Shown here: positions 2,088-42,200 of the stretch, piece after piece | Layout: every line of letters starts with the position of its first letter | Numbering within the stretch: the stretch's first letter is position 1 | Source of the DNA: Macrostomum lignano | Lineage: Eukaryota | Reading direction: 5' to 3' | NCBI GenBank assembly: GCA_002269645.1 | Contig: NIVC01000952.1 | Span: 524,967-588,966 of the forward strand | DNA: 64,000 nucleotides | The notes under the pieces: model-generated | Told to the model about the DNA's origin: nothing | Database searches by the model: none | What the model saw: only the letters and a program-made list of their open reading frames with translations | Translations under genes and position numbers: made by a program

Positions 2088-2656
2088 TAAATTTGACAGT
2101 TGGCGATGATATACATGTAGTAAGTAAGCTTAGTGCCGCCTCTGCATAGCCAGTAATGAAAGTTGGTAAGTAATTTTTTTCTCCGCTGTCTATTTTAACG
2201 CTGCAAAAGCCGCTCGAAATTCAAAATCATAGATTTTAAGCCGTATAACTTTTTATTTTATACGAAACAAAAATATGCAGGAATAATTCATTTTTAAACA
2301 GCAGTTTTCTTTTTTAATTTTCGGTAGTTTTTAAACGTTGGAATTATAATCATAGTGAATTCGCTTTTGTTACCATGTTGATTAGACAAAATTATAACGA
2401 TCGTACATGCACACGTAACTAAGAATACTCGTACACAGCTTGCTCATACTAAAAGAAAAGCATTCGGCTTCCAAAGCGTTTGAACATCCTTGATGCAATA
2501 AAAAACTTGAATATATGGAAAACGTAATGCATAAACCTCCAAAACATTTTTAAGACCTTATATCATATTATTATAGGATTAAAAAGTTGATTCGTAGGTC
2601 TATGCAATTCGCAAAATAAGCATTCAGTTTTAAGGAGCCGTTTTATTCAGCATCAG

Positions 2657-2777
2657 TCAGCAGTAGTTGATCAGCGCGATCAGCACAGCGCCGACCACCA
2701 GGAAGTTCGCAGTCCGCAGTCTCAAGCCTTGCTTTTTGATAGTCGGCGGACAGTCGTTGCCGCCGTTGCTCTCTGGC
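2657..2777 (-). CDS. Displaced C-terminal end of the VWDE-like gene (hydrophobic, GPI-signal-like tail)
   Basis: Removing the LTR element and one TGCA copy joins 13367 to 2777 in frame: ...AEGL-Q-PESNGGNDCPPTIKKQGLRLRTANFLVVGAVLIALINYC*, with the stop at 2657-2659. Confidence 0.8.
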
Positions 2778-2781
2778 TGCA

Positions 2782-3637
2782 TGTAGAGTGTTCTACCTCC
2801 CGTTAAAAAAGGAAAAAAGAAGATAATCGTATAATACTACTATAAGTAAGTAAGTACACGCATGTGCGCCTAAGCTTTGAATGAATCACGCTACCAGAAA
2901 AAGATGTTACCAGAATAATACGCCATGAGCCATTTTCCCCTTTTAGCGCAACACGTGAATTGTCATGATACTATTTTGGATCAAAAACTTGTCTATAAAT
3001 ACAAGCGATCTGAAGCGGTACCGGAGCCATTCTCCCCACGGAAGAGGAGCGCTCCGAAGAGGAAGCCTTAGGAGGACTTCCTGATATACCAAGTCAATCG
3101 AGACTCGGTCGAGTTGTTGCGGTAAGCCTTCCTTATTTGCGCCGTTGTGTTAGAGACGTCTCGCTCAAGTCTATTGAGACTTGAGTCTATTTGAGTCTGT
3201 TGAGACTCTTGAGTCTGTTTAGACTCCATTGGTTGCAGTCTCCAGAAGGACTGCCCCTGATAGATCTTAGAGGACTATCTGTGGTTTCCGGAGCTATACC
3301 TAGAGTGCATAGAGGCACTGCTAGAAGAAGGAGGCTTAATTTAGACCGCAGTTTGGCGCAGGGATCCCACTGTTAATTCGGAAGCTTCCCATTGGTCCGA
3401 GCGACAGAATCCGGCCGGAACTATTTGAAGAAGAAAGAAGAATCGGACCCGATCTACAAACGAAAGTCAGAAGTGACTATACGAGAGCAACTGAAGACAA
3501 TCGAGAACTACTCCGAGAGATCTCCAAAGGACTCAAGGTAATTGAATACCTTCTGTTGACTTACTGGGTTGCCTAGCTGCTGAGCTAGAAGTGATTGTTC
3601 CTTGATTATCGAAAGTCGGGTAATAAGGAACACATCA
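2782..3637 (+). repeat. 5' LTR (856 bp)
   Basis: TGTAGAGTG...AACACATCA, identical by eye to 12511-13366. TATA-like TATAAATA near 2995. Confidence 0.97.
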
Positions 3638-3639
3638 AT

Positions 3640-3650
3640 TGGTGATCTCG
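3640..3650 (+). promoter_or_regulatory. Primer-binding site, tRNA-Trp-like
   Basis: TGGTGATCTCG starts 2 nt after the LTR. It resembles the TGGTGACCCCG complement of the tRNA-Trp 3' end with two G:U wobbles; the tRNA identity is tentative. Confidence 0.65.
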
Positions 3651-4352
3651 CCCTCTCGGCACTACTCAAACCTTGAGCAATAGCCTGGCCAAGCTATTGT
3701 AAAGTGACGACAGAGCGACTTCATTAATTTTGCGCGCACGTGTTAGAGTTAACACTTTTCAAGTCCGTACGTTTTGAAACTCGAGTAAAAAATTTTGGTG
3801 TACAGGTTTGAGCACCTGTCAAATTTGAGTACAGTTTGAGCACGCGTGTTAAATTTTGTTTTAACGAGCTCGAGCAAGTGTGAGTTAAAATAAAACTGAA
3901 ATTAAATTCATCGGTACACTGAAAACAAACCGAAAATAAAAGAATCGTCGACGCAAAACAAACAAAAAAATAACGGAAACATTTTGCCGGCACAAAAAAC
4001 TAAAACCGAAATTAATTGAAACTTCGTGAAGAGCGGAGTTAAGTGACAAAAGAGAGAGAGTCAAAGAAGAAAAAAAAAAAGAATTTGCAAAGCAAGAAGA
4101 CAAGTCCATCCTAACTTGAAGATACACTTTGCGGGACGCCGCATAAGTGCGAAATCAGCAAGCGAACAGAACAAGTTCATTTGAGGACAACCAGTGGCAG
4201 CAAGCCACACCGCATCCGAGGCCAGCGAATAACAAATCGACACCACAAGACAATTCGTTACAGTCGAGGTTTATTCCGAGGCAAACACCACACTGGACGA
4301 TCCGTTACAAATCGATCCAGATCTTGAACTACCGTTCTATCCTATCAACAAC

Positions 4353-5201
4353 ATGGCGCGGCGCAATCCAACGGTACACAGAGACATCAAAGAAACGGTC
4401 GGTACCTTCTCGATGGAGAAAGATTTTAACACATTTGTCGACCACTTTGACCTGGTATGTAGGGAATACAACCTACAAAATCCAGAGAAGGCACAGCTGC
4501 TGCCACCTCTTCTCCAAGGTACTGCGCGAGAAATTTACGGCAAGCTGGATGCAGCAACACAGCAAAATTATCCAGCACTAATCATTCAACTGCGCGCGCA
4601 TTTCAACCGTTGCGGCACAAACAGATCAGTGCTGCTGCACAAGTTACATAACAGAAGGATGCAAGCAACAGAATCCTTCCTCGCCTTTGTGGACGATATC
4701 CGCCAGATAATTAAGGCACTGCATCAGCCACCGCTGCAAGCTGCGGACCAACCGCCACTGGGAGCGGCAGAATTGGCCGCCAGAGAAAGACAACGATTGA
4801 TGGATCGCGAACAAAACCTCATCCTGCACGTAATAAACAACGCACAGCCGTCACTTCGGGATAGACTTTTGCGTGAAAATATCGAAACCGAAGAAGACCT
4901 TTTGCGGTGCGGAATGCAGTGGGAAGCCAGTGCCCCATTAATGACGACAGGCAACAATGAAGTGCAGAAACTGACGCAGCAACTAAACAAGTTAATGCAG
5001 CACCAGACAGCTGCTATCGCCGAACAAAAAAGACGAAATGAACAAGCCCAGCCAGATGTTACTACTGCGGACAAGAAGGACATTATCAGATTAATTGTCC
5101 TCATTGGTCAACAAGATACGACAAGCCGCGACAGATATTCAACAATCAGAAGCCGCAGAAACCATGGCAGCAATATCAAAATCGCCAACAACAAAGCATA
5201 A
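4353..5201 (+). CDS. gag: Gag capsid region; the real Gag continues in the -1 frame from ~5050
   Basis: Gag-like helical ORF (FSMEKDFNTFVDHFDLVCREYNL...LLQGTAREIY...MQATESFLAFVDDI). A CCHC knuckle follows in the next frame. Confidence 0.9.
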   Translation: MARRNPTVHRDIKETVGTFSMEKDFNTFVDHFDLVCREYNLQNPEKAQLLPPLLQGTAREIYGKLDAATQQNYPALIIQLRAHFNRCGTNRSVLLHKLHNRRMQATESFLAFVDDIRQIIKALHQPPLQAADQPPLGAAELAARERQRLMDREQNLILHVINNAQPSLRDRLLRENIETEEDLLRCGMQWEASAPLMTTGNNEVQKLTQQLNKLMQHQTAAIAEQKRRNEQAQPDVTTADKKDIIRLIVLIGQQDTTSRDRYSTIRSRRNHGSNIKIANNKA

Positions 5202-6574
5202 GACGCGTCGGAAATGATAGACGCTTCGGAAATAATGACCGCTCCGGAAATGATGGCCGCTTCGGAAACGAAGGCCGCTTCAGAAATAATGGCTACAGGC
5301 CACGCAATGCCAGGTACGCACAAAGACAGCCAACGCAAGCAATGCCACGATACGCGAATGCCATCACGTACACACCGGAAAATGAGCAGCAGGAACAGCA
5401 AGTGTTCACAATTGACGACTTGGAAATGGACTTCACAGTCCCGGAACTTGACATCAGCTTGATCGAAAAGAAGACGACGCACGAGGACAACACTGACAAC
5501 ACAGAAGAGGCGAATGAAACCGAAATGATCGAATTAAAAGAGACCACCGGAGACAGCAGAGAAAACAGGAAGAAAGTAAATCACAAGAAAAGGGAGGAGA
5601 CGGAGAGCGACACCGGCAACGAAGAAAAGATGAAGACTGGCAGAGAAAACAACTATGAATCGACAACAGTGGATGACGAAAAAACAAGCACGAAAGACAA
5701 AGAAATGAAGGAAGAAGAAGAATGTATAAGTTGCGGCAACGATCACGACTGCGAAGTGCATGATGATACGAATGGATACCGAGCCGAAGAAGGAATGCAG
5801 GAAGAACTGAGAGCGGAAAATCTAAGTTCCGACAGCGATCAAGGCTACGAAATACAATGGAAAGATGAAGAAATGGAAAAAGAACAAATGAAAGAAAAGC
5901 CGAGTTCCGACAGCGACGAATGCTACGAGATCCGATACAAACGAAATGGTGAAGCCTATATTCAAACGGTCGACTACAAGGCAGAGAAAAGATACCAAAC
6001 GCAATGGAGTGAAACAACGGAAACATCGGAAGAAGCTACAGACGAAGATACTGAAATAACCAAAGAGCAAAGCAAATCAGAAGCCTTCCGCCTGAATCAG
6101 CCAATGGAACAACCGAAAGAATACGATGCGGACATGGAGGATAACGAATGGCAATCGCAGCCAATGCCAGCAAAGACAACGGCAAGGTCCAAGAAGTGGA
6201 AAAACTGGCTGCTCTGGATCATCGTGATACTACTGATAGCAGTAGTCGCCAAAGCAACGGCAATGGAGAAACCAATGATATGTCCAACGGATGCGCATAT
6301 CCAACCAATGATCTACAAGATACCAACCGACATCAAATGCAGCTACTTCAAGACAAACCAGACGAAGCCAAAGAAGATCACAATTGATCTCTACAAAGCT
6401 AACATCAAGAAGCATCGACAACTCGGAATAGTGTGCTTTAGAGACAAGCACCTAGTGGAAAAAGTTTGGCGAGGACAGTGGAACAGAATTCGATTTTGGC
6501 AACACGAACACATGTGTCGCACGCTGAATGTCTACAATGGAACCAAACACTGTTCTCAAAGGATGGTCAGCTAG
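5048..6574 (+). CDS. Gag zinc knuckle, R-x-G-N repeats, acidic spacer, Env signal peptide and Env N-terminus
   Basis: CYYCGQEGHYQINC at 5057-5098 is in frame with ORF 5342..6574. Five 18-nt repeats at 5204-5293. KKWKNWLLWIIVILLIAVVAKATA at 6191-6262, then MICP...KC. Confidence 0.85.
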   Translation, partial: PARCYYCGQEGHYQINCPHWSTRYDKPRQIFNNQKPQKPWQQYQNRQQQSIRRVGNDRRFGNNDRSGNDGRFGNEGRFRNNGYRPRNARYAQRQPTQAMPRYANAITYTPENEQQEQQVFTIDDLEMDFTVPELDISLIEKKTTHEDNTDNTEEANETEMIELKETTGDSRENRKKVNHKKREETESDTGNEEKMKTGRENNYESTTVDDEKTSTKDKEMKEEEECISCGNDHDCEVHDDTNGYRAEEGMQEELRAENLSSDSDQGYEIQWKDEEMEKEQMKEKPSSDSDECYEIRYKRNGEAYIQTVDYKAEKRYQTQWSETTETSEEATDEDTEITKEQSKSEAFRLNQPMEQPKEYDADMEDNEWQSQPMPAKTTARSKKWKNWLLWIIVILLIAVVAKATAMEKPMICPTDAHIQPMIYKIPTDIKCSYFKTNQTKPKKITIDLYKANIKKHRQLGIVCFRDKHLVEKVWRGQWNRIRFWQHEHMCRTLNVYNGTKHCSQRMVS

Positions 6575-8055
6575 AACCGGATGAGAAAGTGGGGGAGGCA
6601 CAACTTTACCGAACGAAGAACTCAGCAAACGGACGATATGTACACTTTTCGGAAGCATGGACTAACTACATGACACGAAACAGTTACCTAATCAGGAATA
6701 TTCCATTCTATCACAATCCTTTTGAAAAAATGGAGTCGCTACAACTGCAATTAAGCGACTGCCGATACAGCAAAGGATGGTGTCCAACACCAATTCTACG
6801 GAAGGAAGAATTACACAGTCTACCACTGAGTCCAACATATCATCAAAACTATCGATGGCAGATTGAGCACAGAGCACACTCACACTATGAGGAACCGTAC
6901 AAGTCACGACAATATTTCTTCGCATGGGAAGTAGAGCCGGAAATTGACTGCAAGCTTCAAAAGTATCACACAGTGGAAGGAGGACTACTGTCGAATACAT
7001 TTTTGGCAAAAGCAGGAGACTTGGCCTTGACGTTTCAAAAGAAGCCGGACGAACAAGAACTCAAATGCAAGAATACGGACAAGACGCTGTTCATCTCGGA
7101 GCAAGAAATACCAGTCTATGTAAAGGATGGTGACAAACAAACCTTCCTGGCAATCATAAACGGAACATATCAGCAACAAGAAAGACAGCGACGCGACATA
7201 GAACGTCCACGATTGGTGTCGAACCGACTACTGTCAGCAAAGATCACGGCTTTAGATCACAATCTGCATAACCAGCTAAATCACCTACATCGATCACTGG
7301 TTCAGTTAACTTGCAAGATGCACGCAATCAACTTGAACTACGCAAGACAAAACTACTATGTCAACCCTACGATGACATTTCGCAAGATCACTGGAATGAG
7401 AGAGGTTCTGGCAATTCCGATATATGGACATCTCCTGATATACAAGTGCACGCCGATACAGCACTTCAACATCTTGCCGTCGAATACTTCAACAACTTGC
7501 TACGACAAGCCGAGAATTGAAGCATTCTACGAAGGCAAAAGGATCCAAGGATTCTTGGACACGGTACACAACATTATCGTTGGCACCGCCATACCAAGAC
7601 CGTGCACCACGGCAGCAAACTACTATCAACTGGACAATGCACTACACGTCATCAAAACAACTGGAACGACAGCAAACGTCACAGAACCGGAAGTAATCGT
7701 CGACGAAAACTACGACATGGAGGATTTGAAAATCCGATTCAACAGAACGAAGTATACGCCATTCGCCGATATCCAACTTGACGAGATAACACCAGGATGG
7801 ACGATCAACGACTTCTTGCAAGCGTTCATCACCCAACGTAAGATGATTCACCAGCTGTTCACAAGAAAGGACAAAGGAACCGGGACAGGAAGATTTCCCG
7901 TCCTTGTTTCAATGGACAGCGCCATCAAATCATTTTGGACAAATAGCTTCTGGGAGCTGCTCAATGGAAGAGGCAGTCTCTATCAAGGATTCATCTTCTA
8001 CGGTGCTTGCATTGTGTGGATTGTCACGGCAATCTTCATCATTTCATCGATCGTA
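6191..8055 (+). CDS. env: Envelope glycoprotein, class III (gB-like), with one -1 break in the 6466-6574 overlap
   Basis: Signal peptide; Cys-rich ectodomain; six N-glycosylation sequons (NQT x2, NGT, NTS, NVT, NRT); furin site RQRR at 7183-7194; gB-like helix ...CKMHAINLNYARQNYYVNP...KC...CYDKP; TM at 7990-8055. Confidence 0.8.
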
Positions 8056-10881
8056 CGGTGCTTCAGTCAAACTTGTCCAAGAGCTAAGAAGACAGTGAAT
8101 GCCATAATGCAAAGAACGACAACGGAAAGCGACAACAGTTTAGAACTAACAGAAACTGCACATTGTGAGGTTCAAGGGCAACCGACACTAGCAACGCGGC
8201 TATATCCATCGATTCCGACAACACCAACGGCACCAAGGATACAACCACCCAACTATCAAGCAGAACAGCACGAGCCAAAATGGCCGGAAAACTACGTCTG
8301 TACGCTACACGCCGAGATTGGCAAAGCAATGGCTCAGGTCATTGTCAACAACTTGCCATGTCGAGCACTACTGGATTCAGGCAGCTCGATCACAGTCATC
8401 TCGCAACAATTATGCAACAAGCTACGACTCGCGGTACGACCAGCAGCAATCGCAGTTGCAGGAGCAGGAGGACATTCACTCAACATCCTAGGAAAAGCAG
8501 ATATCGACTTGAAAATTGCTAATAAACAGCTGACGGTCCCGACGTACATCATCGACAGACTACCAAACCAAGACGTCATCGTTGGAATCGACACGTTCAA
8601 GCAGCTTCAACTACCATTGACCTTCGACTTCAACAAGCAAACGTTTAGGATCGACACGGTGGAGCAACCGCTGATCAACCAGATTCGAGTACTACCGAAA
8701 GTAACTCTGCAGCAAGATGTCATTATCCAGCCTGAAAGCGCATGCTGGGTCAGAGCGAAAACGACCAGCGCGGCAGATGAAGCAATGATATTTGATCCAC
8801 ACAGGAGAGTCACGGCAAAACATCAAATCATGATGCCTACGGCACTAGTGCTGGTTGCAAAGGATAAGCAACTGCCAGTACAAATCTTCAACCCGAACAC
8901 AGAAACGGTTCATCTACGACAAGGAATGTGCATCGGTCATCTCAACACCCAAGCATCGGTTATGCTGATTGAACAAGCGACTCCACGACTAACAGAGGAA
9001 GAATTTCAAAAGAAGATCAATTTGGATGACAGCCCGATTACGGAACAGCAAAAGAGGAAAGTTCGACAGCTGTTGTGGAAGTACAACGAAGCCTTCTGCC
9101 ATCATGATTACGACATCGGACGAGCCAAGGACATCAAACAGGAAATCAAACTTCTGCCGCACACGGAACCAATTCAGTGCAAGCCGTACCCGATCGCCAA
9201 GCATCTGCAACAACACTTTGACGAAATCATCGATAAAATGCTAAAGCACGGCATCATCAGCAAAGCTATTTCGGCTTACTCCTCACCGTGCCTACTGGTA
9301 CAGAAGAAGGAGACAAACGAAAGACGACTCGTATGCGACTTCAGACTGTTGAACAAGTACATACCGACGGATCAGCAAAGCCTACCGAAGATCTCCGAAC
9401 TACTAGCAAAGCTCAACACGGCAAAATTGTTCACGGTGTTCGACCTACGTCATGGATTTTGGCAAATTGAAATCGAGAAAGAGTCACGACAGTACACGGC
9501 TTTCAAAACCTACAATGGACAAGTATACGAGTACAATCGATCGCCGATGGGACTCAGCAACAGCCCAGCAACGATGAGCCGACTAACAGCATACATGCTT
9601 GCAGGATGCACGAACCTGTTGCACTATGTTGACGACATCTTGGCCCACGGAGAAGACTTCGAACGACTCTATGAAGCGACGGAGAAGGCCCTCGCGCTTA
9701 TACAACGTCAAGGTCTGAAGCTACAACCAACTAAATGCAAATTCTTCCGAGACAACGTGCGTTACCTGGGACATCAGGTGACAGCCAAAGGAATCTCACC
9801 GGACCCAGACAACGTGGAAAAGGTGAAGAAGTTTCCTACGCCAACCAGTATAACGAAGGTCCAATCATTCCTTGGACTTGCGCAATACTTCAGGAAGTTC
9901 TTACCTAACTTCGCAAAGACAGCAAAGCCACTGTACGACCTGCTCAAGTTCGACAAATGGAAGCAAGACAACTGGACACAGAGACAACAGGAAAGTTTCG
10001 ACGAAATCAAACGACAGCTGACATCAGACGCACTGCTACAGCATCCGGACTTCGACAAGCCCTTCATCATCGAGACAGACGCCTCAGGAACGGGACTCGG
10101 AGCAGTCCTACTACAGGAAACCGAGGACAAGAAGGAACGACCTATTGCTTACGTCAGTCGAGCACTCAAACCAAATGAGACAAAGTGGTCAGCTACGGAA
10201 CGAGAGCTACTAGGAGTCTTGTTCGCCCTGCGACAGTTTCATTACTACATCTATGGTTCTCCAATACAGACGATAGTACGCACGGATCATGCACCATTGA
10301 CCTACGTCGTAACTACAAAAGGACAGACCAACAACCGACTCATCAGGATGACACTCAAGATCCAGGATTACAACTACAAACTCGTCTACAAACCAGGAAT
10401 TACCAACAAAGCCGCGGACGCCCTGTCAAGAGCCTATGAAGTCAACGCCATTCATCCAATCCCTAACATCAAGGAGTTGGTGGATGAAACCGAGCGCGAC
10501 AACTTCTACCAAGCGGTTAAAGACGACGACAAGAACATCCAACTCAGCCCCATGGAACGAAAATTCCTACGCAAGCAACGACAACACCTAACAATCAATA
10601 AGTCACGGCTCTACTGGATGAGCGACAATAAACCCAAGATCTACGTACCATATTCGTTTCGGCAAGCAATCTCAACGAGCTGCACGACAACCCACTCGCT
10701 GGACACCTGTCGGCCGCAAAGACCATCGCGAGAGTGGAACAATACTACTTTTGGCCAACTATGTACGGCGACATCAAGCAGTATTGCAACAACTGCCATT
10801 CATGTGCTGCATCAAAGACAGGACGACGACAGAAACCGCAGCTACAGTCCATTCCGAAGTCGACTACAATGGACTGTCTAA
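6466..10881 (+). CDS. pol: Env C-terminal part fused in frame to Pol (aspartic protease, RT, RNase H)
   Basis: LLDSGS protease (D at 8374), YVDD RT (9625-9636), ETDASG...ELL...TDH RNase H, all in the same frame as the furin site and TM. Confidence 0.95.
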   Translation: MARTVEQNSILATRTHVSHAECLQWNQTLFSKDGQLEPDEKVGEAQLYRTKNSANGRYVHFSEAWTNYMTRNSYLIRNIPFYHNPFEKMESLQLQLSDCRYSKGWCPTPILRKEELHSLPLSPTYHQNYRWQIEHRAHSHYEEPYKSRQYFFAWEVEPEIDCKLQKYHTVEGGLLSNTFLAKAGDLALTFQKKPDEQELKCKNTDKTLFISEQEIPVYVKDGDKQTFLAIINGTYQQQERQRRDIERPRLVSNRLLSAKITALDHNLHNQLNHLHRSLVQLTCKMHAINLNYARQNYYVNPTMTFRKITGMREVLAIPIYGHLLIYKCTPIQHFNILPSNTSTTCYDKPRIEAFYEGKRIQGFLDTVHNIIVGTAIPRPCTTAANYYQLDNALHVIKTTGTTANVTEPEVIVDENYDMEDLKIRFNRTKYTPFADIQLDEITPGWTINDFLQAFITQRKMIHQLFTRKDKGTGTGRFPVLVSMDSAIKSFWTNSFWELLNGRGSLYQGFIFYGACIVWIVTAIFIISSIVRCFSQTCPRAKKTVNAIMQRTTTESDNSLELTETAHCEVQGQPTLATRLYPSIPTTPTAPRIQPPNYQAEQHEPKWPENYVCTLHAEIGKAMAQVIVNNLPCRALLDSGSSITVISQQLCNKLRLAVRPAAIAVAGAGGHSLNILGKADIDLKIANKQLTVPTYIIDRLPNQDVIVGIDTFKQLQLPLTFDFNKQTFRIDTVEQPLINQIRVLPKVTLQQDVIIQPESACWVRAKTTSAADEAMIFDPHRRVTAKHQIMMPTALVLVAKDKQLPVQIFNPNTETVHLRQGMCIGHLNTQASVMLIEQATPRLTEEEFQKKINLDDSPITEQQKRKVRQLLWKYNEAFCHHDYDIGRAKDIKQEIKLLPHTEPIQCKPYPIAKHLQQHFDEIIDKMLKHGIISKAISAYSSPCLLVQKKETNERRLVCDFRLLNKYIPTDQQSLPKISELLAKLNTAKLFTVFDLRHGFWQIEIEKESRQYTAFKTYNGQVYEYNRSPMGLSNSPATMSRLTAYMLAGCTNLLHYVDDILAHGEDFERLYEATEKALALIQRQGLKLQPTKCKFFRDNVRYLGHQVTAKGISPDPDNVEKVKKFPTPTSITKVQSFLGLAQYFRKFLPNFAKTAKPLYDLLKFDKWKQDNWTQRQQESFDEIKRQLTSDALLQHPDFDKPFIIETDASGTGLGAVLLQETEDKKERPIAYVSRALKPNETKWSATERELLGVLFALRQFHYYIYGSPIQTIVRTDHAPLTYVVTTKGQTNNRLIRMTLKIQDYNYKLVYKPGITNKAADALSRAYEVNAIHPIPNIKELVDETERDNFYQAVKDDDKNIQLSPMERKFLRKQRQHLTINKSRLYWMSDNKPKIYVPYSFRQAISTSCTTTHSLDTCRPQRPSREWNNTTFGQLCTATSSSIATTAIHVLHQRQDDDRNRSYSPFRSRLQWTV

Positions 10882-11835
10882 GCATCGACATCACCGGACC
10901 ACTGCCACCGAGCTGTCTCCAGGGCATCGCCTACACCTACATTCTAACCGCCTTGGATATCTTCTCGAAGTTTGCTATCGCCATACCGATACCGGACATC
11001 ACAGCTCAGGCAGTGGCAGTGAGTTTCTTCAACGAAATATTTGCAAGTACGGCACGCCGAAGAACCTCACATCGGACAACGGATCGCAGTTTACATCGCA
11101 ACTGTTTCAGCAAGTCGTAAGGATTCTCAACATTACGCAGATCTACACATCGACCTACAATCCGAAGGCAAACATGGTTGAACGGTTTCACCGCAACCTG
11201 CACGAGATGATTACACATTTCGCGCACCAACAGCCGGAAGACTGGATCATCTACCTGCAATCTGTAACAATGGCCTACAACAGCGCTATTCATCGATCAA
11301 CGGACAATACGCCATTCTTCCTAATGTTTGGACGAGACTTCCAACGCCGAATCTGCTCGCACAGCAATTGCTACCATCGCAGTACGTGGAAGTACCGACT
11401 TCCATTCAGAAATTCGTCACGCAACTACACCTCGCATGGAAGATCGCCAAGCACAACATTGACAACCAGGTGGCTCTGACCACCGGCAACGACGCGAGAT
11501 CGACAACCCTGACGGCCGGCGACATCGTTTACCTACACTACCCGCCGCAGCAGACGCATAAACATGCACAGAAGTATAAAGGACCCTATCGAGTGGTCCA
11601 ACTAACGTCACCGACAACGGCACGCCTGGCTAATGTACAAGATCCACATCAGCACCAGTTCTACGTACACATTCATCGACTAAAGAAGATCAACACTGAC
11701 ACCGCGACGTTTCTACCGACATTAGACAACGCTGATCGCACGCGTTCAACGAACCGCCACATCGCGACGAAGCACGAGGAGACTCAAACGACAGATGTGA
11801 GCCAGCCACATGGCTACAACCTACGACCACGCTAG
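10671..11835 (+). CDS. pol: Integrase (HHCC, DDE, GPY), broken by three single-base gaps
   Basis: LHDNPLAGH...CNNCHSC, SIDITGP, SDNGSQF, VERFHR, KGPYRV. Gaps at ~10671 (c/cc), ~11041 (ttt/tttt) and ~11343 (aa/aaa). Confidence 0.92.
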
Positions 11836-11955
11836 AGTTTCGAGAGCAACCCCGTGTAGTGACCGGGATAAAGAATAGCACTACAGCTTCGCAAGCTTGT
11901 CGTAAAAGGCGACTAATCCGAGCGACACAAAGACAGCGACAAATTGGCAACAATT

Positions 11956-12330
11956 ATGGGCAACGCACTGTCGAAACAGGCGCCCCAGCCTCAGCAGCTA
12001 TATGACTGCCCGATATGTTTAACTGATGACTTGGCTGTCAAGCCACCGACTATTTGCATCAACGAACATAAAGTTTGCGGACAATGTTTAAGCGATTCAC
12101 ATTATATTCAGCCATGGCAGAATTGTCCCCTCTGTAGAGATAGTTTGCGACAATGTGCCTATTGTTATTCTTGGCGCACGTTTCAATATTGTAACCACCA
12201 ACATTTTATTTGCATGCACTGTTTGAAGCAAACCGCTAGTAGGGGCGTTATAGGATGCCCCTTATGTAATAGTATGCCGCGAGACTGCACGTTTCGAAAG
12301 TGGTGTCGGATCAAACCTGATGCCACTTGA
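11956..12330 (+). CDS. Accessory protein with an N-myristoylation motif and two tandem C3HC4 RING-like fingers (124 aa)
   Basis: MGNALS...; CPIC-x12-C-x3-H-x2-C-x2-C-x12-CPLC; CAYC-x8-C-x3-H-x2-C-x2-C-x11-CPLC. It lies between the integrase stop and the PPT. Confidence 0.85.
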   Translation: MGNALSKQAPQPQQLYDCPICLTDDLAVKPPTICINEHKVCGQCLSDSHYIQPWQNCPLCRDSLRQCAYCYSWRTFQYCNHQHFICMHCLKQTASRGVIGCPLCNSMPRDCTFRKWCRIKPDAT

Positions 12331-12495
12331 TGTCTACGCGATATTCGAGTTTTGACCGCAATATGTACTGAAAAGTTTTTAGAGTTTTGACCAAACCCTC
12401 GCTTCACTAGACGCGCACAAAATCAATTGTTTATTTCCTATATTAACTGATCACCACAGAATTTTATTGTTAAAACTCGGGACGAGTTTTTTCGT

Positions 12496-12507
12496 AAAAA
12501 AGGGAGA
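12496..12507 (+). promoter_or_regulatory. Polypurine tract
   Basis: AAAAAAGGGAGA, 3 nt before the 3' LTR. Confidence 0.85.
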
Positions 12508-12510
12508 TTT

Positions 12511-13366
12511 TGTAGAGTGTTCTACCTCCCGTTAAAAAAGGAAAAAAGAAGATAATCGTATAATACTACTATAAGTAAGTAAGTACACGCATGTGCGCCT
12601 AAGCTTTGAATGAATCACGCTACCAGAAAAAGATGTTACCAGAATAATACGCCATGAGCCATTTTCCCCTTTTAGCGCAACACGTGAATTGTCATGATAC
12701 TATTTTGGATCAAAAACTTGTCTATAAATACAAGCGATCTGAAGCGGTACCGGAGCCATTCTCCCCACGGAAGAGGAGCGCTCCGAAGAGGAAGCCTTAG
12801 GAGGACTTCCTGATATACCAAGTCAATCGAGACTCGGTCGAGTTGTTGCGGTAAGCCTTCCTTATTTGCGCCGTTGTGTTAGAGACGTCTCGCTCAAGTC
12901 TATTGAGACTTGAGTCTATTTGAGTCTGTTGAGACTCTTGAGTCTGTTTAGACTCCATTGGTTGCAGTCTCCAGAAGGACTGCCCCTGATAGATCTTAGA
13001 GGACTATCTGTGGTTTCCGGAGCTATACCTAGAGTGCATAGAGGCACTGCTAGAAGAAGGAGGCTTAATTTAGACCGCAGTTTGGCGCAGGGATCCCACT
13101 GTTAATTCGGAAGCTTCCCATTGGTCCGAGCGACAGAATCCGGCCGGAACTATTTGAAGAAGAAAGAAGAATCGGACCCGATCTACAAACGAAAGTCAGA
13201 AGTGACTATACGAGAGCAACTGAAGACAATCGAGAACTACTCCGAGAGATCTCCAAAGGACTCAAGGTAATTGAATACCTTCTGTTGACTTACTGGGTTG
13301 CCTAGCTGCTGAGCTAGAAGTGATTGTTCCTTGATTATCGAAAGTCGGGTAATAAGGAACACATCA
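12511..13366 (+). repeat. 3' LTR (856 bp)
   Basis: Same sequence as 2782-3637, followed by TGCA. Confidence 0.97.
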
Positions 13367-13494
13367 TGCAGACCCTCGGCCTGGCAGGTCAGCAATTCGC
13401 TGCTGCAGGTCACAGGCCGGCCATCGCACTGTGCCTGGTGCAGCAGCAGGGGCACCGAGTTGCTCGACTCCCAATCGGGTGCTGTCAAGGAGAT
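13367..13494 (-). CDS. VWDE-like gene, last exon (5' part, interrupted by the LTR element)
   Basis: Acceptor ttgaacag|ATC. Reads ISLTAPDWESSNSVPLLLHQAQCDGRPVTCSSELLTCQAEGL, in frame with the upstream exon across an 87-nt GT-AG intron (13495-13581). Confidence 0.75.
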
Positions 13495-13581
13495 CTGTTC
13501 AAGTCAGGGGGTTGGTGAAATTTTATGTAAAAGCACTGAGATTGAAGGCTACCCGCAGTATTTATGCAAATGAGCACCCAC

Positions 13582-14664
13582 GTTAAGAAGCATATACATT
13601 CGAACGTCTTCGACCAGACTATCGTGCATGTCTTGCAGCTCGCACTTCACAATGTCTCCGCTGATGTAAGCAGACGGTGCCGAGTAATTGAGGCTGGAGT
13701 TCACATGAATGTCGCACACCGAGTCAGTGGACTTCAGCAACGGTTTCACTCTCAAGTAAACAGCCGTGCATCTGTCCGAGGCGCAGAAGATGTTCCGCTG
13801 CAGCAGCTCGACCTCTATGGGCATTTCGTCTCGTCTGGCGATCTCAAACTCGCAGCTGGGACCCCAGAACCCGTGGACACACGTGCATTCACCGCTAAAA
13901 CATTGGCCTCTACCTGAGCAGTTTGCTGGGCACAGATCATCGACCAGAGCTTCAATCTTGCTGGAGTTTCCCAACACCGCGGTTGCGTTGTATGTCATTT
14001 CAGTGTAGCACATGCCCAGCATCGAGTTGAACAGGGACTGTGTTGAGTCGAATGTTCCAAGCACAGTGGCGTACTGAGCACAAATCACTTTGAACTGACT
14101 AATGTAATCTGCTTGACCGGTGGGATCTTTCACTTGAGCACAGATCTCAGTGCTAACGGACTTGCTCAACTGAAGCTGCACGAACGTGTTGCAGAACTCA
14201 TCGGCCTCCTGCTGTGAAATTTCCCGAGTCTGAATCTGTCGTATGGGTTCGATTTGTGATTTCAATACCGTCTGTGCAGCTTCTCTTCTGTCTCGTCTTG
14301 TATTTTCAAGGGAAACAAAGCAATTGCTTCTGGTCATTTGGGCATCGTTGCAGGTGCAGATGCCAAGAATTTCGGTCGGCTGCATTCTGGAAAATTCGCA
14401 GACCTTCGGCATCTCGTAGAATGAGTGAAATAAACTTTTTGATGAATCTGCGATCGGCTCCCTTTGCGTTCCAAATATTAAACCATCGACTAAATTTTGT
14501 GTATCGTAAAATCCTGACACAATCATCAAATCCAAGGCAATACGATCGCCGATTTTGACCACGTACATGTATCCCTTGCAGGCCGAATCTGTTTCGAAGT
14601 TTCTCATACTTTCGCTATTCATGACAAAGCTATACAGACGGAGCTGCCCATCGAAAAGGCCCAA
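13582..14664 (-). CDS. VWD/EGF-domain (VWDE-like) extracellular protein, large exon; 5' boundary uncertain
   Basis: 371-aa ORF with a VWD-like segment (VKIGDRIALDLMIVSG...DGLIFG), a Cys-rich region and an EGF motif CPANCSGRGQCFSGECTCVHGFWGPSC. Donor AAC|gtgggt. Confidence 0.7.
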
Positions 14665-14902
14665 ACATGGAGAATAGTTCCATACAGATCGAACTGAACT
14701 TTCATTGCAGCTCCAACATTCTCTACCTTAACTCCAAATGGTAGTCAATCGGGCTTAATCGGAAGAGTTCGCTTCTGTTCACCTTTGGGTGGCAAATATT
14801 TAATTTTGGATAGTTCCTGAAGAGCTGCTACCACAAATTCGGATAATATAGTAGAAGTATCTTATTGCTATCTCAGTTGCATACCAGTTCTTGCCATCCA
14901 TC

Positions 14903-15297
14903 CTGTCCGTCAAAAGTTCCGGAACCCTTGCTACGATGTCTTCTAGCGGACATAATTTCAGTCCGTTTCAATTGTAACTTGATTCAAATGAAAGCTGCGG
15001 ATCTCAGCTCCATGATGTGGTCAAGAAAAAGTTTATTCGAAGGAGCGCGTGTGAAAAATGTGAACAGGCCAGTGTTTGTTCAATTGCTTGTTTGTCTTTT
15101 CCTCACTTTTTTTCTCTAACCTTTATGTACATAACACTGGCCTGTTCACACGCGCTCCTTCGAATAAACTTTTTCTTGACCACATCATGGAGCTGAGATC
15201 CGCAGCTTTCATTTGAATCAAGTTACAATTGAAACGGACTGAAATTATGTCCGCTAGAAGACATCGTAGCAAGGGTTCCGGAACTTTTGACGGACAG
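14903..15297. mobile_element. Foldback/MITE-like element with ~170-bp inverted arms
   Basis: 14903-15076 is the reverse complement of 15133-15297 apart from a 9-nt insertion in the left arm. Spacer is 56 nt; TSD not clear. Confidence 0.8.
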
Positions 15298-16489
15298 TAT
15301 ACATTCATCTGTATTTCGTATGGAAGCATCTTATGATATAGGAGAGTCTAATGACCATGGTGGATTTTGTCCTATAGCTCGGCTCAATTTCAGTTAAGAG
15401 GCCTCGAACTCGAACGAAATCAAATCGATAGTCGGAGGGATTCGAAGAGAGACGGATTCTAATCAAGCCACTAGCTTGCACTGTGACTAGGCCCAAATTC
15501 AAATGCACTGGAGCCGAAGATGCGCATACAGGCCCGGAGGTTTTATGTCTTTGCACTTAAATAAGCCCCGTATTTCCGCCCGCGATTGCACCCTAAAGCA
15601 GACTTGGGGGCTGGTATAGTTTGTGTCCACTGGAACAATTTTTGTCCTTGAGTAAGACACTTAGCTCTGCATTGCTTCAGTTCACCCAGCATTAGCTGGT
15701 TGGTTTAATTGGGTGTGTGCTTGGCGACCACCCAGTCCCTGGACTGAACAGCCGTACGAAGCCTTCAGATGCACCGCGCAATGGCTGGGGCTGAGCTGTC
15801 GGTTGCACTTACAAAGCCTCCAACAGCTCGTGGTGGCACTGAATCCGATCAAGAATTTTAAACTTTTGAGCCGGTTTAACGTCTGCACATGTTTTGCAGA
15901 TGGTCGTGGATTGCGTTTGCCTTATTGCAGTGTTCGTCCATCCTGGTGTACAGGTGACTATCAGTCTTACCGCTGGCTCTGCTTAGCAGGGTACGTGGAG
16001 GGAACTTTGCTTTTTAGGCGCGTTACAAAATTGGCTACTTTTAAGTTAGTATTGAAGCTATCATGAATGCGCATAAGATGGTATACGTCGTGAATTAGAA
16101 AATATATTATATCAAATAATCTAAATATACTAAATCTTCTACTATACTATTATACGAATTCATATAACTTACTCAATAGTGCATGCATTTAATAATGTAT
16201 TGATATAATAATAAAATTTCTAAAGTGAAGTAGCATCTGTAAACAGTTTTAGGACCTGAATATATGTATCAACTATATGGGGGGTTAATCCGCGGCTAAT
16301 CCGCTGTTAAGTCCGCGGTTAATCCACCGCCTGCGTTGGTAAAGCGCTCGCTCGATTCTAAACAAAACCAAAACAACGAAAAAGAATCGTTGGTAGCAAG
16401 GGAAGGGAAGGAAGCGCTAATTAAAGCTTAATAAATCGCAATCCATGCAGAAATTGCAGAAATAGTTCCAAATTGGAGGGATGCTGATC

Positions 16490-17596
16490 CAGGGCCGTAG
16501 CCAGAGGGGGGGCAAGGGGGGCCGTGGCCCCCCCAATCACCAACTCTGGCCTTGGCGCCCCCCCCCCTTAAAAGAAACTGGCGCCCCCCCACCCTAAAAG
16601 AAACTGGCGCCCCCCCCTAAAAGAAACTGGCGCCCCCCCCCCCCTTAAAGAAAGTGGCGCCCCCCTCTAAAAGAAAGTGGCGCCCCCCCCCCCTAAAAGA
16701 AACTGGCGCCCCCCTATAAGAAAGTGGCGCCCCCCCTAAAAGAAACTGGCGCCCCCCCCCCTAAAAGAAACTGGCGCCCCCCCCTAAAAGAAACTGGCGC
16801 CCCCCCCTAAAAGAAACTGGCGCCCCCCCTAAAAGAAACTGGCGCCCCCCCCCTTAAAGAAAGTGGCGCCCCCCTCTAAAAGAAAGTGGCGCCCCCCCCC
16901 CCCTAAAAGAAACTGGCGCCCCCCTATAAGAAAGTGGCGCCCCCCCTAAAAGAAACTGGCGCCCCCCCCTAAAAGAAACTGGCGCCCCCCCCTAAAAGAA
17001 ACTGGCGCCCCCCCCTAAAAGAAACTGGCGCCCCCCCCTAAAAGAAACTGGCGCCCCCCCCCTTAAAGAAAGTGGCGCCCCCCCTCTAAAAGAAAGTGGC
17101 GCCCCCCCCCTAAAAGAAACTGGCGCCCCCCTATAAGAAAGTGGCGCCCCCCCTAAAAGAAACTGGCGCCCCCCCCCTAAAAGAAACTGGCGCCCCCCCC
17201 TAAAAGAAACTGGCGCCCCCCCCCTAAAAGAAACTGGCGCCCCCCCCCCTAAAAGAAACTGGCGCCCCCCCCTTAAAGAAAGTGGCGCCCCCCCTCTAAA
17301 AGAAAGTGGCGCCCCCCCCTAAAAGAAACTGGCGCCCCCCTATAAGAAAGTGGCGCCCCCCCTAAAAGAAACTGGCGCGCCCCTATAAGAAACTGGCGCC
17401 CCCCCCTATAAGAAACTGGCGCCCCCCCCCCCCTATAAGAAACTGGCGCCCCCCCCCCCTAAAAGAAACTGGCGCCCCCCCCCCCTATAAGAAACTGGCG
17501 CCCCCCCCCTAAAAGAAACTGGCGCCCTCCTATAAGAAGCTGGCGCCCCCTAACTCACGCCCCCCCCCCCAATCAAAATTCCTGGCTACGCCCCTG
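16490..17596. mobile_element. Non-autonomous hAT element filled with a ~23-25-bp tandem array
   Basis: TIRs CAGGGCCGTAGCCAG / CTGGCTACGCCCCTG (14/15); 8-bp TSD TGCTGATC at 16482-16489 and 17597-17604; internal unit TAAAAGAAACTGGCG(C)n. Confidence 0.9.
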
Positions 17597-17829
17597 TGCT
17601 GATCTCTCGGTGAAACTCACTAGAAGTTTAAGCGTCACGTACCATGGCGCTCCTGAAGCCTTTAATGATTTATCTGTAACCAACATGCCCCTAAAGTAGC
17701 CTCAGACTCAGCAGATTATTTTGAGAATTTCGGGTAGGCATTTTACTCAGTCTAATTATCCAAGCTGCAACTTGTGATAAGGATTGGTTGGAGGCCAATG
17801 ATACCAGCCGGACATCGGCAACCATCACG

Positions 17830-19770
17830 CAGAGGCGTCGCCATGGAGTTTATGGTAGGGGGGGGGGGCGACAAAATCAAGGATTTTACAAGTGCATGAC
17901 TAAATTCCTACATGTACATTATTTTGGGAGTCGGTGTTGTTATAGCACTCATTTTGGAGCCGCAGACACTCATTTTGGAGCCGCAGACACTCATTTTAGC
18001 CGCAGACACTCATTTTGGCCGCAGACACTCATTTTGGGGCCGCAGACACTCATTTTGGCCGCAGACACTCATTTTGGCCGCAGACACTCATTTTGGCCGC
18101 AGACACTCATTTTGGCCGCAGACACTCATTTTGGCCGCAGACACTCATTTTGGCCGCAGACACTCATTTTGGCCGCAGACACTCATTTTGGCCGCAGACA
18201 CTCATTTTGGCGCCACAGGCACTCATTTTGGGGCCGCAGACACTCATTTTGGCCGCAGACACTCATTTTGGGGCCGCAGACACTCATTTTGGAGCCGCAG
18301 ACACTCATTTTGGCCACAGACACTCATTTTGGCCGCAGACACTCATTTTGGCCGCAGGCACTCATTTTGGCGCCACAGGCACTCATTTTGGAGCCGCAGA
18401 CACTCATTTTGGCCGCAGACACTCATTTTGGGGCCGCAGACACTCATTTTGGCCGCAGACACTCATTTTGGCGCCACAGGCACTCATTTTGGAGTCGCAG
18501 ACACTCATTTTGGAGCCACAGGCACTCATTTTGGAGTCGCAGACACTCATTTTGGAGCCACAGGCACTCATTTTGGCGCCACAGGCACTCATTTTGGAGC
18601 CGCAGACACTCATTTTGGCCGCAGACACTCATTTTGGGGCCGCAGACACTCATTTTGGCCGCAGACACTCATTTTGGCGCCACAGGCACTCATTTTGGAG
18701 TCGCAGACACTCATTTTGGAGCCACAGGCACTCATTTTGGAGTCGCAGACACTCATTTTGGAGCCGCAGACATTCATTTTGGGGCCGCAGACACTCATTT
18801 TGGAGCCGCAGACACTCATTTTGGCCACAGACACTCATTTTGGCCGCAGACACTCAATTTGGCCGCAGGCACTCATTTTGGCGCCACAGGCACTCATTTT
18901 GGAGCCGCAGACACTCATTTTGGCCGCATACACTCATTTTGGGGCCGCAGACACTCATTTTGGCCGCAGACACTCATTTTGGCCGCAGACACTCATTTTG
19001 GCGCCACAGGCACTCATTTTGGCGCCACAGGCACTCATTTTGGAGCCGCAGACACTCAATTTGGCCGCAGGCACTCATTTTGGCGCCACAGGCACTCATT
19101 TTGGAGCCGCAGACACTCATTTTGGCCGCAGACACTCATTTTGGGGCCGCAGACACTCATTTTGGCCGCAGACACTCATTTTGGCGCCACAGGCACTCAT
19201 TTTGGAGCCGCAGACACTCATTTTGGCCGCAGACACTCATTTTGGGGCCGCAGACACTCATTTTGGCCGCAGACACTCATTTTGGCGCCACAGGCACTCA
19301 TTTTGGAGTCGCAGACACTCATTTTGGAGCCACAGGCACTCATTTTGGAGTCGCAGACACTCATTTTGGAGCCGCAGACATTCATTTTGGGGCCGCAGAC
19401 ACTCATTTTGGAGCCGCAGACACTCATTTTTGCCACAGACACTCATTTTTGCCGCAGACACTCATTTTGGCCGCAGAGACTCATTTTGGCGCCACAGGCA
19501 CTCATTTTGGAGTCGCAGACACTCATTTTGGAGCCACAGGCACTCATTTTGGAGTCGCTGACACTCATTTTGGAGCCACAGGCACTCATTTTGGAGCCGC
19601 AGACACTCATTTTGGAGCCACAGGCACTCATTTTGAAGCCGCAGACACTAATTTTGGAGCCACAGACAGCCATTGCCAAAGGCGCTATGTTTTGGCGCCC
19701 TGAAGCAAAGTTATTGATTTCACGGGGGGGGGGGGCATGTCCCCCTTGTCCACCGGTAGCGACGCTCTTG
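17830..19770. mobile_element. hAT-like MITE with degenerate TIRs carrying a 19/21-bp minisatellite (~17944-19665)
   Basis: Ends CAGAGGCGTCGCCA... / ...GGTAGCGACGCTCTTG with G-runs inside both. Units CACTCATTTTGG(AG/CG/GG)CCRCAGR. No TSD found. Confidence 0.6.
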
Positions 19771-39221: not shown

Positions 39222-42200
39222 CTGACGGGGGAGGTTGGGGTTGGAGTTGAGGTTGAGTCAGACTCCGCCCAGCTGATGTCACATCCCAGTCATGCGAAAA
39301 GGGTGAGGGTCACACTACAAACCTGGTGCGCAGATGGGCAGCCTGAGGCTTCAAGTTGTGGTCCCTCAGGATCTTGGCCCGCAGGCCCAGGTCCGGGTCG
39401 TCCTTGATAGCGTCCCAGCTGTCCATGCCGAACTCGTACACGCCAATCAGCAAGTTCGAGTCGTCAATCTCGTCCCACACGCAGTCCCAGGTGACAGTCT
39501 TGGTGTAGAAGGGCACCCTGTACTTCCGGCGCGCCTCCCTGTCTGCTGGCATCTCCCTGTGCAGCGGGGCGAGGTCCTTCTGCGACTGCAGCAGCGGCCG
39601 GGCCTGGATCACCACCCGGCCGAGCGTGAAGGACGGCGCGCTGGGCTTCGCCGAAGCCTCCTCGCCTGTCGCGAACGTGGCAGCCTTGGCGACGGCCCGC
39701 TCGCAGCCCTGCAGGATGGCTTCGACCAGGCGGCGGACCTCCGTCTCCGACTTCTCCTGCAGCTCCGCCTCCTCCACCACGCTGTCCAGCCGGTCCAGCG
39801 GGCTGGCGAACTTGCGCATCGCCTTGGCCAGGGCGCGGATCTCGCGGTCCGACAGCTCCTCCTCGTCCTCGGCGCCCACGTTCAGCGGCTTGACCTGCGG
39901 GGGCGTTGACATGACAAAAAGTAAGGCAAACCTGACTGAGTGTCAGACTGTCTGACTGACTGTCTGACTGACTGCCTGACTGACTGACTGACTGACTGAC
40001 TGACTGCCTGCCTGCCTGACTGCCTGACTGACTGACTGACTGACTGACTGCCTGCCTGCCTGACTGCCTGACTGACTGACTGCCTCGCTGACCTGCTTGC
40101 GCTGTCGCGGCCCCAGCTCGAGCTGCAGCAGACGCTCCTCGGCCTCCTCCTGCTCGATGCGGCGCCGACTCTCCTCGGGGATGATCTCCTCCCAGGTCTT
40201 GCTGGCCGCCGGCTCCGCTGACTGCCCGGCGGAGTCCCCGGCAGCCGTGGCCGTCGCTTGGCCTTTGCGCCTGCCGGAGGGCCCGCCGCCGGACATGATG
40301 ATCTCCGTGTCCTCAAGGTTCTCCAGGTTCACCACCTGCGGGCGGATTGGCAAAAGCAGGTTGTTAAAGAGAATCTTGATGAAAAGCTCGGCTGAGCACA
40401 TGTCTGGGTGGACAATATCCTGCTAGAGTTCGAACCAAGGACCACTGTTAGTATTATAAGAGGACGTAAAATTTTGAAGCCAGTTTCTTGAAAAAAATCC
40501 GTATTTTTACAATGCAGTTGTTTCAGGCGGATTTTACTAGTGGTCCTTGGTTCGAGTCGGAAAGCTTTTCACACTCCTAAGAACTCCCATCTCCCAAGCT
40601 CTAAGTTTGTCTATGGCTAAGGCTACGAGCATGTACAGAACGGCATAGCAACCACGAGCGACAGGTTCCAACCTTGAACTGCGACAGCAGCTCCTCGGCA
40701 GCTGCGGAGGTTGGCTGCAGCTCCTCGCGAGTCTCAGCGCTGCGCAGAATGGCGTCCAGGTCCACCTCGGCCTCGGACTCCTCGCCCTCCTTCTCGCGGA
40801 ACAGGTCTGCGGCGCCGAACTTGAGGATGGCGGACAGTTCGTCCTTGGAGAAGGCGGGGTTGCCGGCGTCGCCTGGCTGACGCAGGCGGCCCGTGGTGTC
40901 CATGCGCTGAATGACCAGATGGTCCAGCACCATCTTCTGCTTGGCCCGTTCGATGATGTCCTCCTCTACTGTGGCGCGGAGCACCAGGCGGTAGACCCGC
41001 ACCTGGCGCGTCTGGCCGATGCGGTGGCACCTGGAAAATTGGAACGGATTTGGGATGTTTAGCTTTCGGTTGAGGATGTTTAGCCTCCGGTTGAGGATGT
41101 TTAGCTTCCGGTTGGGATGTTTAGCTTCCGGTTGGGGTGCGGTTGCTTGCGTAAACTGACCGAGGCAAACTTTTGTTCAAGCATCGAAGACCCACCTGGC
41201 CATCGCCTGCAGGTCATTCTGCGGGTTCCAGTCGCTGTCGAAGATGACCACGGTGTCAGCCGAGGCTAAGTTGACGCCGAGGCCGCCAGCTCGGGTGGAC
41301 AGCAGGAAGCAGAAGTCCTGCGAACTCTCCGCATTGAAGGCGTCAAGCGCCTGTTTGCGGGCCTCGCCTAGAATGGTGCCGTCCAGTCGCTGGAAGGCCC
41401 AGTTGCGCAACGACAGGTACTCGGCCAGCACGTCCAGCATCATCACCATCTGAGAGAAGATCAGAACCCGGTGCCCGCCGGCTCGCAGATTCCACAGCAG
41501 CTTGTCCAGCAGCAACATTTTGCCCGAGCCCCTGATGAGGCTCTCCAGCCTCTCGCAGCGGTCCGTGAGCTGCGGCGGCTCCTGCACCAGAAAGGTGTGG
41601 TTGCAGCACTTTTTCAGTTCCATGATCAGGTTGAGGAAGGCGTTGGGCTTGTTCAGCATCTTGTAGTTCCTGCGGGGCGATAGGGGTTGCGGTGAGTTTT
41701 AATTCGGGCACTTATTTATGCGAGATTGTCAGGTAGGATTTTGTGAGATTCTCAGGTAGATTTATGTGAGATTCTCAGGTAGATTAATGCGAGATTGTCA
41801 GGTAGATTTATGCGAGATTGTCAGGTAGATTTATGTGAGATTCTCAGGTTGATTTATGAGAGATTCTCAGGTTGATTTATGCGAGATTCTCAGGTTGATT
41901 TATGCGAGATTCTCAGATTGATTTATGCGGGATTCTCAGGTTGATTTATGTGAGATTCTCAGGTAGATTTATGCGAGATTGTCAAGTAGATTTATGCGAG
42001 ATTGTCAGGTAGGATTTTGTGAGATTCTCAGGTTGATTTATGAGAGATTCTCAGATTGATTTATGTGAGATTCTCAGGTTGATTTATGCGGGATTCTCAG
42101 GTTGATTTATGCGGGATTCTCAGGTTGATTTATGCGGGATTCTCAGGTTGATTTATGCGGGATTCTCAGGTTGATTTATGCGAGATTCTCAGATTGATTT

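Follow-up and report, generated by a model that had tools for sequence, protein, structure and literature searches.

In the stretch of Macrostomum lignano DNA analysed here (the window: 64,000 nucleotides of contig NIVC01000952.1), a Ty3/gypsy LTR element carries env between gag and pol, and natural sibling copies elsewhere in the genome encode all three genes in one open reading frame. The reading that we regard as fairly probable is that a single Gag-Env-Pol chain is made, crosses the membrane twice, carries Pol on the tail of Env and leaves the cell by what would probably be ESCRT-assisted budding.

The element is a complete copy on the plus strand (2782–13366), and all its features discussed below have the same orientation. 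Its LTRs, both with TG...CA ends, occupy 2782–3637 and 12511–13366 and are identical at 856 of 856 bases; a target-site duplication TGCA, which has no strand of its own, flanks them at 2778–2781 and 13367–13370. A primer-binding site follows the 5′ LTR (3640–3651) and a polypurine tract precedes the 3′ LTR (12496–12507). Together with gypsy-type Pol domains in the order protease, reverse transcriptase (RT), RNase H, then integrase, these structures place the element in the Ty3/gypsy group (Metaviridae), and gypsy-annotated proteins are among the named sequences nearest to its RT. The earlier note had recognised the coding region correctly but overlooked the LTRs, the target duplication and the primer site, as well as a small RING gene. 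According to Supplementary file 1 of PMC13524379 (Chary and Hayashi, eLife 2026), Platyhelminthes_Rhabditophora_Mlig_errantivirus_2 from the same species has an HSV/gB-type Env, an 863-bp LTR and a spacing of 9,727 bp, against 856 bp and 9,729 in the window, and the identical 12-nt primer site, tabulated as GCGAGATCACCA, the reverse complement of ours. Matched by these tabulated features, the window element almost certainly belongs to the Mlig_errantivirus_2 family.

The insertion is very young, because its LTRs are identical and the target site is empty at two homologous host loci. The empty loci also explain why contigs from two of four sequencing runs contain a joint that bypasses the element. 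A minus-strand host coding exon (window 2642–2776 and 13369–14727) is interrupted by the insertion; it is apparently the last exon of a gene encoding an EGF-domain surface protein that has a hydrophobic C-terminus, and the reading frames on either side run on through the target site and end in a hydrophobic tail and a stop codon. Elsewhere in the window (14900–15300, 16560–19668, 41714–50508 and 61940–63997) there are a 156-bp, 99% inverted repeat, possibly a MITE, and minisatellite arrays with units of 20–23 bp.

The coding region starts with the Gag capsid region (4353–5201), which runs from the first methionine (MARR), lacks an N-terminal glycine and gave only a weak Pfam match, to DUF1759. 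The CCHC zinc knuckle of the nucleocapsid lies at 5057–5098 (PF00098, E 1.7e-4), and a rapidly evolving acidic spacer some 280 residues long (5366–6190; 81 D/E vs 38 K/R in one sibling) connects the nucleocapsid to a putative internal signal or first transmembrane segment (6191–6262, helix 6206–6262). Read by eye, this segment has a basic n-region and a hydrophobic core, and the residues at its probable cleavage site are small. The predicted ectodomain of Env, a gB-like class III fusogen (6263–7986), contains a furin-type site RQRR (7183–7194) and is followed by the second transmembrane helix, the Env anchor (7987–8043). In the presumably cytosolic linker between the anchor and the protease, three late-domain-like motifs, LYPSI, PTAP and PPNY, are clustered within 19 residues (8200–8256). 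The chain is completed by the aspartic protease (8335–8592, with LLDSGS at 8368–8385), the RT with RNase H (9301–10371, YVDD at 9625–9636) and the integrase with its zinc finger, core and C-terminal part (10632–11835, in three pieces in this copy, the polyprotein stop being at 11833–11835). Between protease and RT (window 8600–9000) lie about 110 conserved residues that have no Pfam match; judged by their position, they are a possible dUTPase-like remnant.

That the env-between-gag-and-pol order proposed in the earlier note is real is evident from the window copy and its siblings alike, and the frame relations described there were reproduced. The furin-type site, transmembrane helix and protease motif share one frame, stop-free over 6442–10881; the Env signal is in frame with the Gag zinc knuckle, both lying within 5042–6574; and the six ORF pieces step by −1 (frames 2, 1, 0, 2, 1, 0). 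The inference drawn from them, one Gag-Env-Pol polyprotein, is now borne out by natural copies. As siblings we analysed all 18 other genomic places, represented by 20 further DNA matches; 17 of them have gag, and the 16 full-length ones were aligned with the window copy. Eight of the 18 are open from Gag to the integrase core without any repair, six of these to the integrase C-terminal end, with frames of 2,461–2,538 codons from stop to stop, and the remaining ten are partial or broken at differing places. The knuckle and the signal are in frame in 13 of the 17 siblings with gag. A consensus-type check for a stop between the transmembrane anchor and the protease had been suggested; the two are in frame in 18/18 siblings.

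The window copy itself is defective, with breaks near 5.0, 6.5, 10.7, 11.0 and 11.3 kb. All five are private to it, the sites being open in 16/16 aligned siblings, and are therefore lesions or errors, not recoding sites. Programmed −1 frameshifting at these positions is thereby ruled out, and in one open copy none of three slippery heptamers was in the −1 phase. Decay seems to us a less likely cause than an error of sequencing or reverse transcription, because the five breaks stand beside perfectly identical LTRs. Two more gaps, near 6.6 and 6.7 kb, appear against 15 of the 16 siblings; they are absent against one sibling and lie in a divergent Env segment, and were rejected as breaks. Most genomic copies are broken, since only nine of the best 57 Env matches in the genome are in frames of at least 2,400 codons. 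Synonymous divergence along the ORF varies more than tenfold between copies (L008, L013, L016, L018), a mark of recombination between subfamilies.

Database proteins with 98–100% identity bear the name M. lignano, a species the genome of which contains at least 113 Env matches. Five additional families were found there, with about 62, 29, 29, 27 and 26% Env identity, two of which have open copies (frames of 2,502–2,503 and 2,859–2,866 codons). In an RT tree built from database relatives only, all six Macrostomum families form one clade (support 0.996), separate from nematode-named Steinernema and Panagrolaimus proteins, and the other Env-bearing relatives are dispersed across the tree. Among 36 distant Env matches, 13 have the protease motif and eight combine knuckle and protease motifs in a single chain; one is named Panagrolaimus superbus. 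In three of the distant Macrostomum families (L021, L023, L026) the ectodomain between the helices is 820–890 residues long vs about 600 here, and one distant Env relative (P0024) has an N-terminal NADAR domain fused on.

Profile and structure predictions identify Env as a class III fusogen like herpes gB and the nyamivirus glycoprotein, so the env assignment of the earlier note stands. Built from 28 natural Env sequences, a profile matched EBV gB (E 1.9e-11), and eight of its nine matches were herpesvirus gB. In structure comparison the AlphaFold model (pLDDT 73, pTM 0.45) matched herpes gB with E 1e-19, while the best predicted viral structures were the glycoproteins of Beihai rhabdo-like virus 3 (E 3e-23) and Midway nyavirus (7e-23); the likeness is at the level of domains only, because whole-chain TM-scores are low (0.2–0.38). 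Such an Env might be a mere passenger, an RNA-virus glycoprotein captured in frame and tolerated by an intracellular retrotransposon, and the text of PMC13524379 shows neither particles nor infection for any such element. Selection data, however, largely refute this idea, which we find scarcely credible: in four pairs of close copies, dN/dS of Env is 0.05–0.16, and both helices and the furin-type site are retained across families at 26–62% Env identity. The same pairs gave 0–0.05 for Gag, 0.34–0.59 for the acidic spacer, 0.15–0.23 for the linker between the second helix and the protease and 0.01–0.02 for RT-RNase H, and all polyprotein domains are under purifying selection.

The open chain has just two strong hydrophobic segments, with a net charge of +5 before the first helix and +3 after the second, and the first segment has a counterpart in 6/6 families. 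This pattern supports the two-crossing topology that had been postulated earlier: an internal signal, then a stop-transfer anchor, which would leave Gag and Pol in the cytosol. In the one-chain reading that we prefer, the polyprotein would cross the ER membrane twice and signal peptidase would cut it after the first helix into two membrane-linked products, Gag-spacer-signal and Env-Pol. Env trimers may then bring the protease domains together, so that the protease could release the enzymes; the amount of Pol per particle would be set by the number of spikes and not by a frameshift rate; and P[TS]AP in the Env tail would probably recruit TSG101/ESCRT for budding, taking the role of retroviral Gag late domains. 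Since such a cleavage would give two products, what is made in equal amounts could still be packaged unequally; the 1:1:1 stoichiometry suggested in the earlier note is thus tenable for synthesis but not for packaging, where Gag would be separated from Env-Pol. A point against this model is that Gag would be tethered at its C-terminal nucleocapsid end, the reverse of the retroviral geometry, which leaves the entry of Pol into the core unexplained.

Unequal ratios could instead be obtained from the same single ORF by RNA processing or turnover, with an excess of Gag arising from spliced or early-terminated gag RNA or from Pol decay, and with cytosolic capsids forming before they meet Env. Precedents exist: copia makes abundant spliced or early-terminated gag RNA, Tf1 relies on selective Pol decay, and foamy viruses assemble their capsids in the cytosol before Env is encountered. 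By a rough volume estimate based on the Ty3 shell of 540 subunits, the interior of a capsid is too small for one Pol per Gag, and a protease-like site ANAI just after the nucleocapsid (5354–5365) could free Gag early; repeated [AV]NAI sites of this kind occur only in the window copy's family. On the other hand, GT..AG ends were found in none of the 15 joints examined out of 22, in contigs that neither show nor exclude splicing, and signal-peptidase cleavage alone would already uncouple packaging from synthesis. We consider this explanation unlikely. The contigs, from four runs (three of them presumed RNA), cover the element and give no evidence on its expression either way.

The budding step of the preferred one-chain model draws on the linker motifs, the classes of which recruit ALIX (LYPSI), TSG101 (PTAP) and Nedd4-type ligases (PPNY) in retroviral budding; the host genome encodes a TSG101-type UEV domain. 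P[TS]AP is present in the linker of 6/6 families and in 14 of 15 copies examined, the exception being a PNAP in one copy of the second family, and the other 12,238 residues of six representative frames contain it a single time. The three motif classes came together in 5 of 200,000 shuffles of the linker of the window copy's family; for P[TS]AP, the shuffle p was 0.017–0.083 per family, values that are not independent since the families are related. The tests were made after the motifs had been noticed, on linkers that are proline-rich. The six families being one clade, P[TS]AP shows conservation and not six independent gains.

The proline motifs may also be incidental to a disordered linker, or may serve sorting or turnover of Env, in which case the polyprotein and its fusogen would be real and the particles would exit without them. 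The proline content of the linkers (10–18%), the PNAP variant and the lack of P[TS]AP in 14 of 15 distant Gag-Env-Pol proteins are in line with this. Nevertheless, the exact motif is kept in all six families despite linker turnover, the linkers of the three deepest groups being just about 23–31% identical, and it is absent upstream of the protease in all 23 env-less controls, which were database relatives and not a same-host set; the background is 0.005 per 115 residues. We hold this reading to be improbable. The first env-less control retained 19 of 119 proteins, and a relaxed rerun evaluated 28, after 43 had dropped out with no protease motif located and 48 with too little upstream sequence; five of the 28, having an upstream helix, were counted apart. 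The idea of a late domain universal to Gag-Env-Pol elements can be ruled out: among 15 other proteins with an Env/TM-protease fusion, any late-type motif was seen in five and P[TS]AP in only one, and the latter is therefore a feature of the lineage and not of the layout. Our literature search found nothing on Macrostomum-type elements regarding either late domains in gypsy elements or signal-peptidase-processed gypsy polyproteins.

Between pol and the 3′ LTR lies a separate RING ORF (11956–12330) of 124 codons with two RING-like cysteine clusters. The Met-Gly start is found in 18/18 siblings and dN/dS is 0.14–0.30. In one large subfamily the ORF has a common early stop and the RING cysteines are lost, while other subfamilies have two or more RING paralogues, some contigs containing runs of four to six. 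At G000:C4009:39917-47958, C272:407798-415283 and C1063:101197-102984, three to six diverged paralogues lie close together in a row, suggesting an expandable accessory cassette. The second family has two tandem RING ORFs without the Met-Gly start (L019 7807–9103, L020 7842–9102), and none was seen in the 3′ stretch examined in the four distant families. The RING gene is accessory, and its product is likeliest an E3 ligase acting against host factors; feature neighbours among RING proteins of large DNA viruses (0.90–0.92) are a weak lead. Arenavirus Z, a weaker neighbour (0.87), is likewise a small Met-Gly RING protein, but proteins of that type have an N-terminal glycine, one RING and late domains and are needed in every active genome, whereas the ORF described here has two RING-like clusters and is degenerate or multiplied in sibling subfamilies. 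An essential Z-like matrix role is unsupported, Met-Gly being absent in the second family and the RING degenerate in the large subfamily.

In flavivirus, hepacivirus and alphavirus polyproteins, too, an internal signal and a glycoprotein come after the capsid, and foamy viruses show Env-dependent budding and package Pol without Gag-Pol fusion; with the enzymes unrelated, these likenesses are analogies of mechanism only. Sacco et al. in 2022 reportedly described nematode endogenous retroviruses (NERVs) with a continuous gag-env-pro-pol ORF, a nyamivirus-like Env and extra small ORFs. NERVs, as cited in PMC13524379, have env before pol and share this order with our element, but the host phylum differs and the Macrostomum families have their own RT clade; with a flatworm host, and apart from the nematode-named relatives, the element lies outside the NERV clade. 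It lacks the separate env ORF 3′ of pol that characterises canonical insect errantiviruses, and the BEL/Pao-type Pol with env after integrase of Belpaoviridae (Atlas, Cer7/Tas and Anakin type). Atlas virus of Ancylostoma ceylanicum does encode a single 2,828-residue polyprotein with Gag, Pol and Env (PMC9094657), but this belpaovirus has the order Gag-Pol-Env, a class II phlebovirus-like Env and a Pol that is not behind a membrane anchor.

The element is a non-canonical errantivirus, having env between gag and pol and an HSV/gB-type ectodomain flanked by a signal or transmembrane segment and a transmembrane segment. GAG-ENV-POL errantiviruses with gB-type Env, not monophyletic, are reported from Nematoda, Bryozoa and Platyhelminthes (PMC13524379), contrary to the earlier suggestion that the layout might be undescribed. 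Layout and family are thus already known from print, and the headline is therefore not a discovery. The main text of PMC13524379 makes no mention of polyprotein, fusion, frameshift, splicing, late domain, budding, ESCRT or RING, while the fusion or the additional ORF may be visible already in its figures and sequence files or in the bioRxiv supplements; term searches of PMC4604429, PMC12801592 and PMC5408684 yielded nothing about the element or about RING ORFs.

In the portions of the literature consulted, the Env-tail budding motifs and the RING cassette are unreported leads. Retroviruses set the Gag:Pol ratio by frameshift or readthrough and express Env from its own RNA. This strategy is impossible for Gag-Env-Pol elements, and the remaining value of the finding lies in the mechanism: the Env-tail motif cluster offers a specific, testable idea for budding and enzyme loading, in a flatworm that is a laboratory animal and carries many recent copies. 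It is conceivable, though we hold it with some doubt, that these elements follow a route novel to Ortervirales, with one chain crossing the ER membrane twice, spike-driven budding and packaging, a C-terminal Gag anchor, an Env tail bearing a late domain and the whole of Pol, and an arsenal of RING ligases. If so, the dose of Pol would equal the number of spikes in a reverse-transcribing virus of the Macrostomum lineage, and the RING genes of the 3′ cassette, one to several in number, would supply accessory ubiquitin ligases. Such a mechanism bears on the infectivity of env-bearing gypsy elements outside insects, a question left open by the text of PMC13524379.
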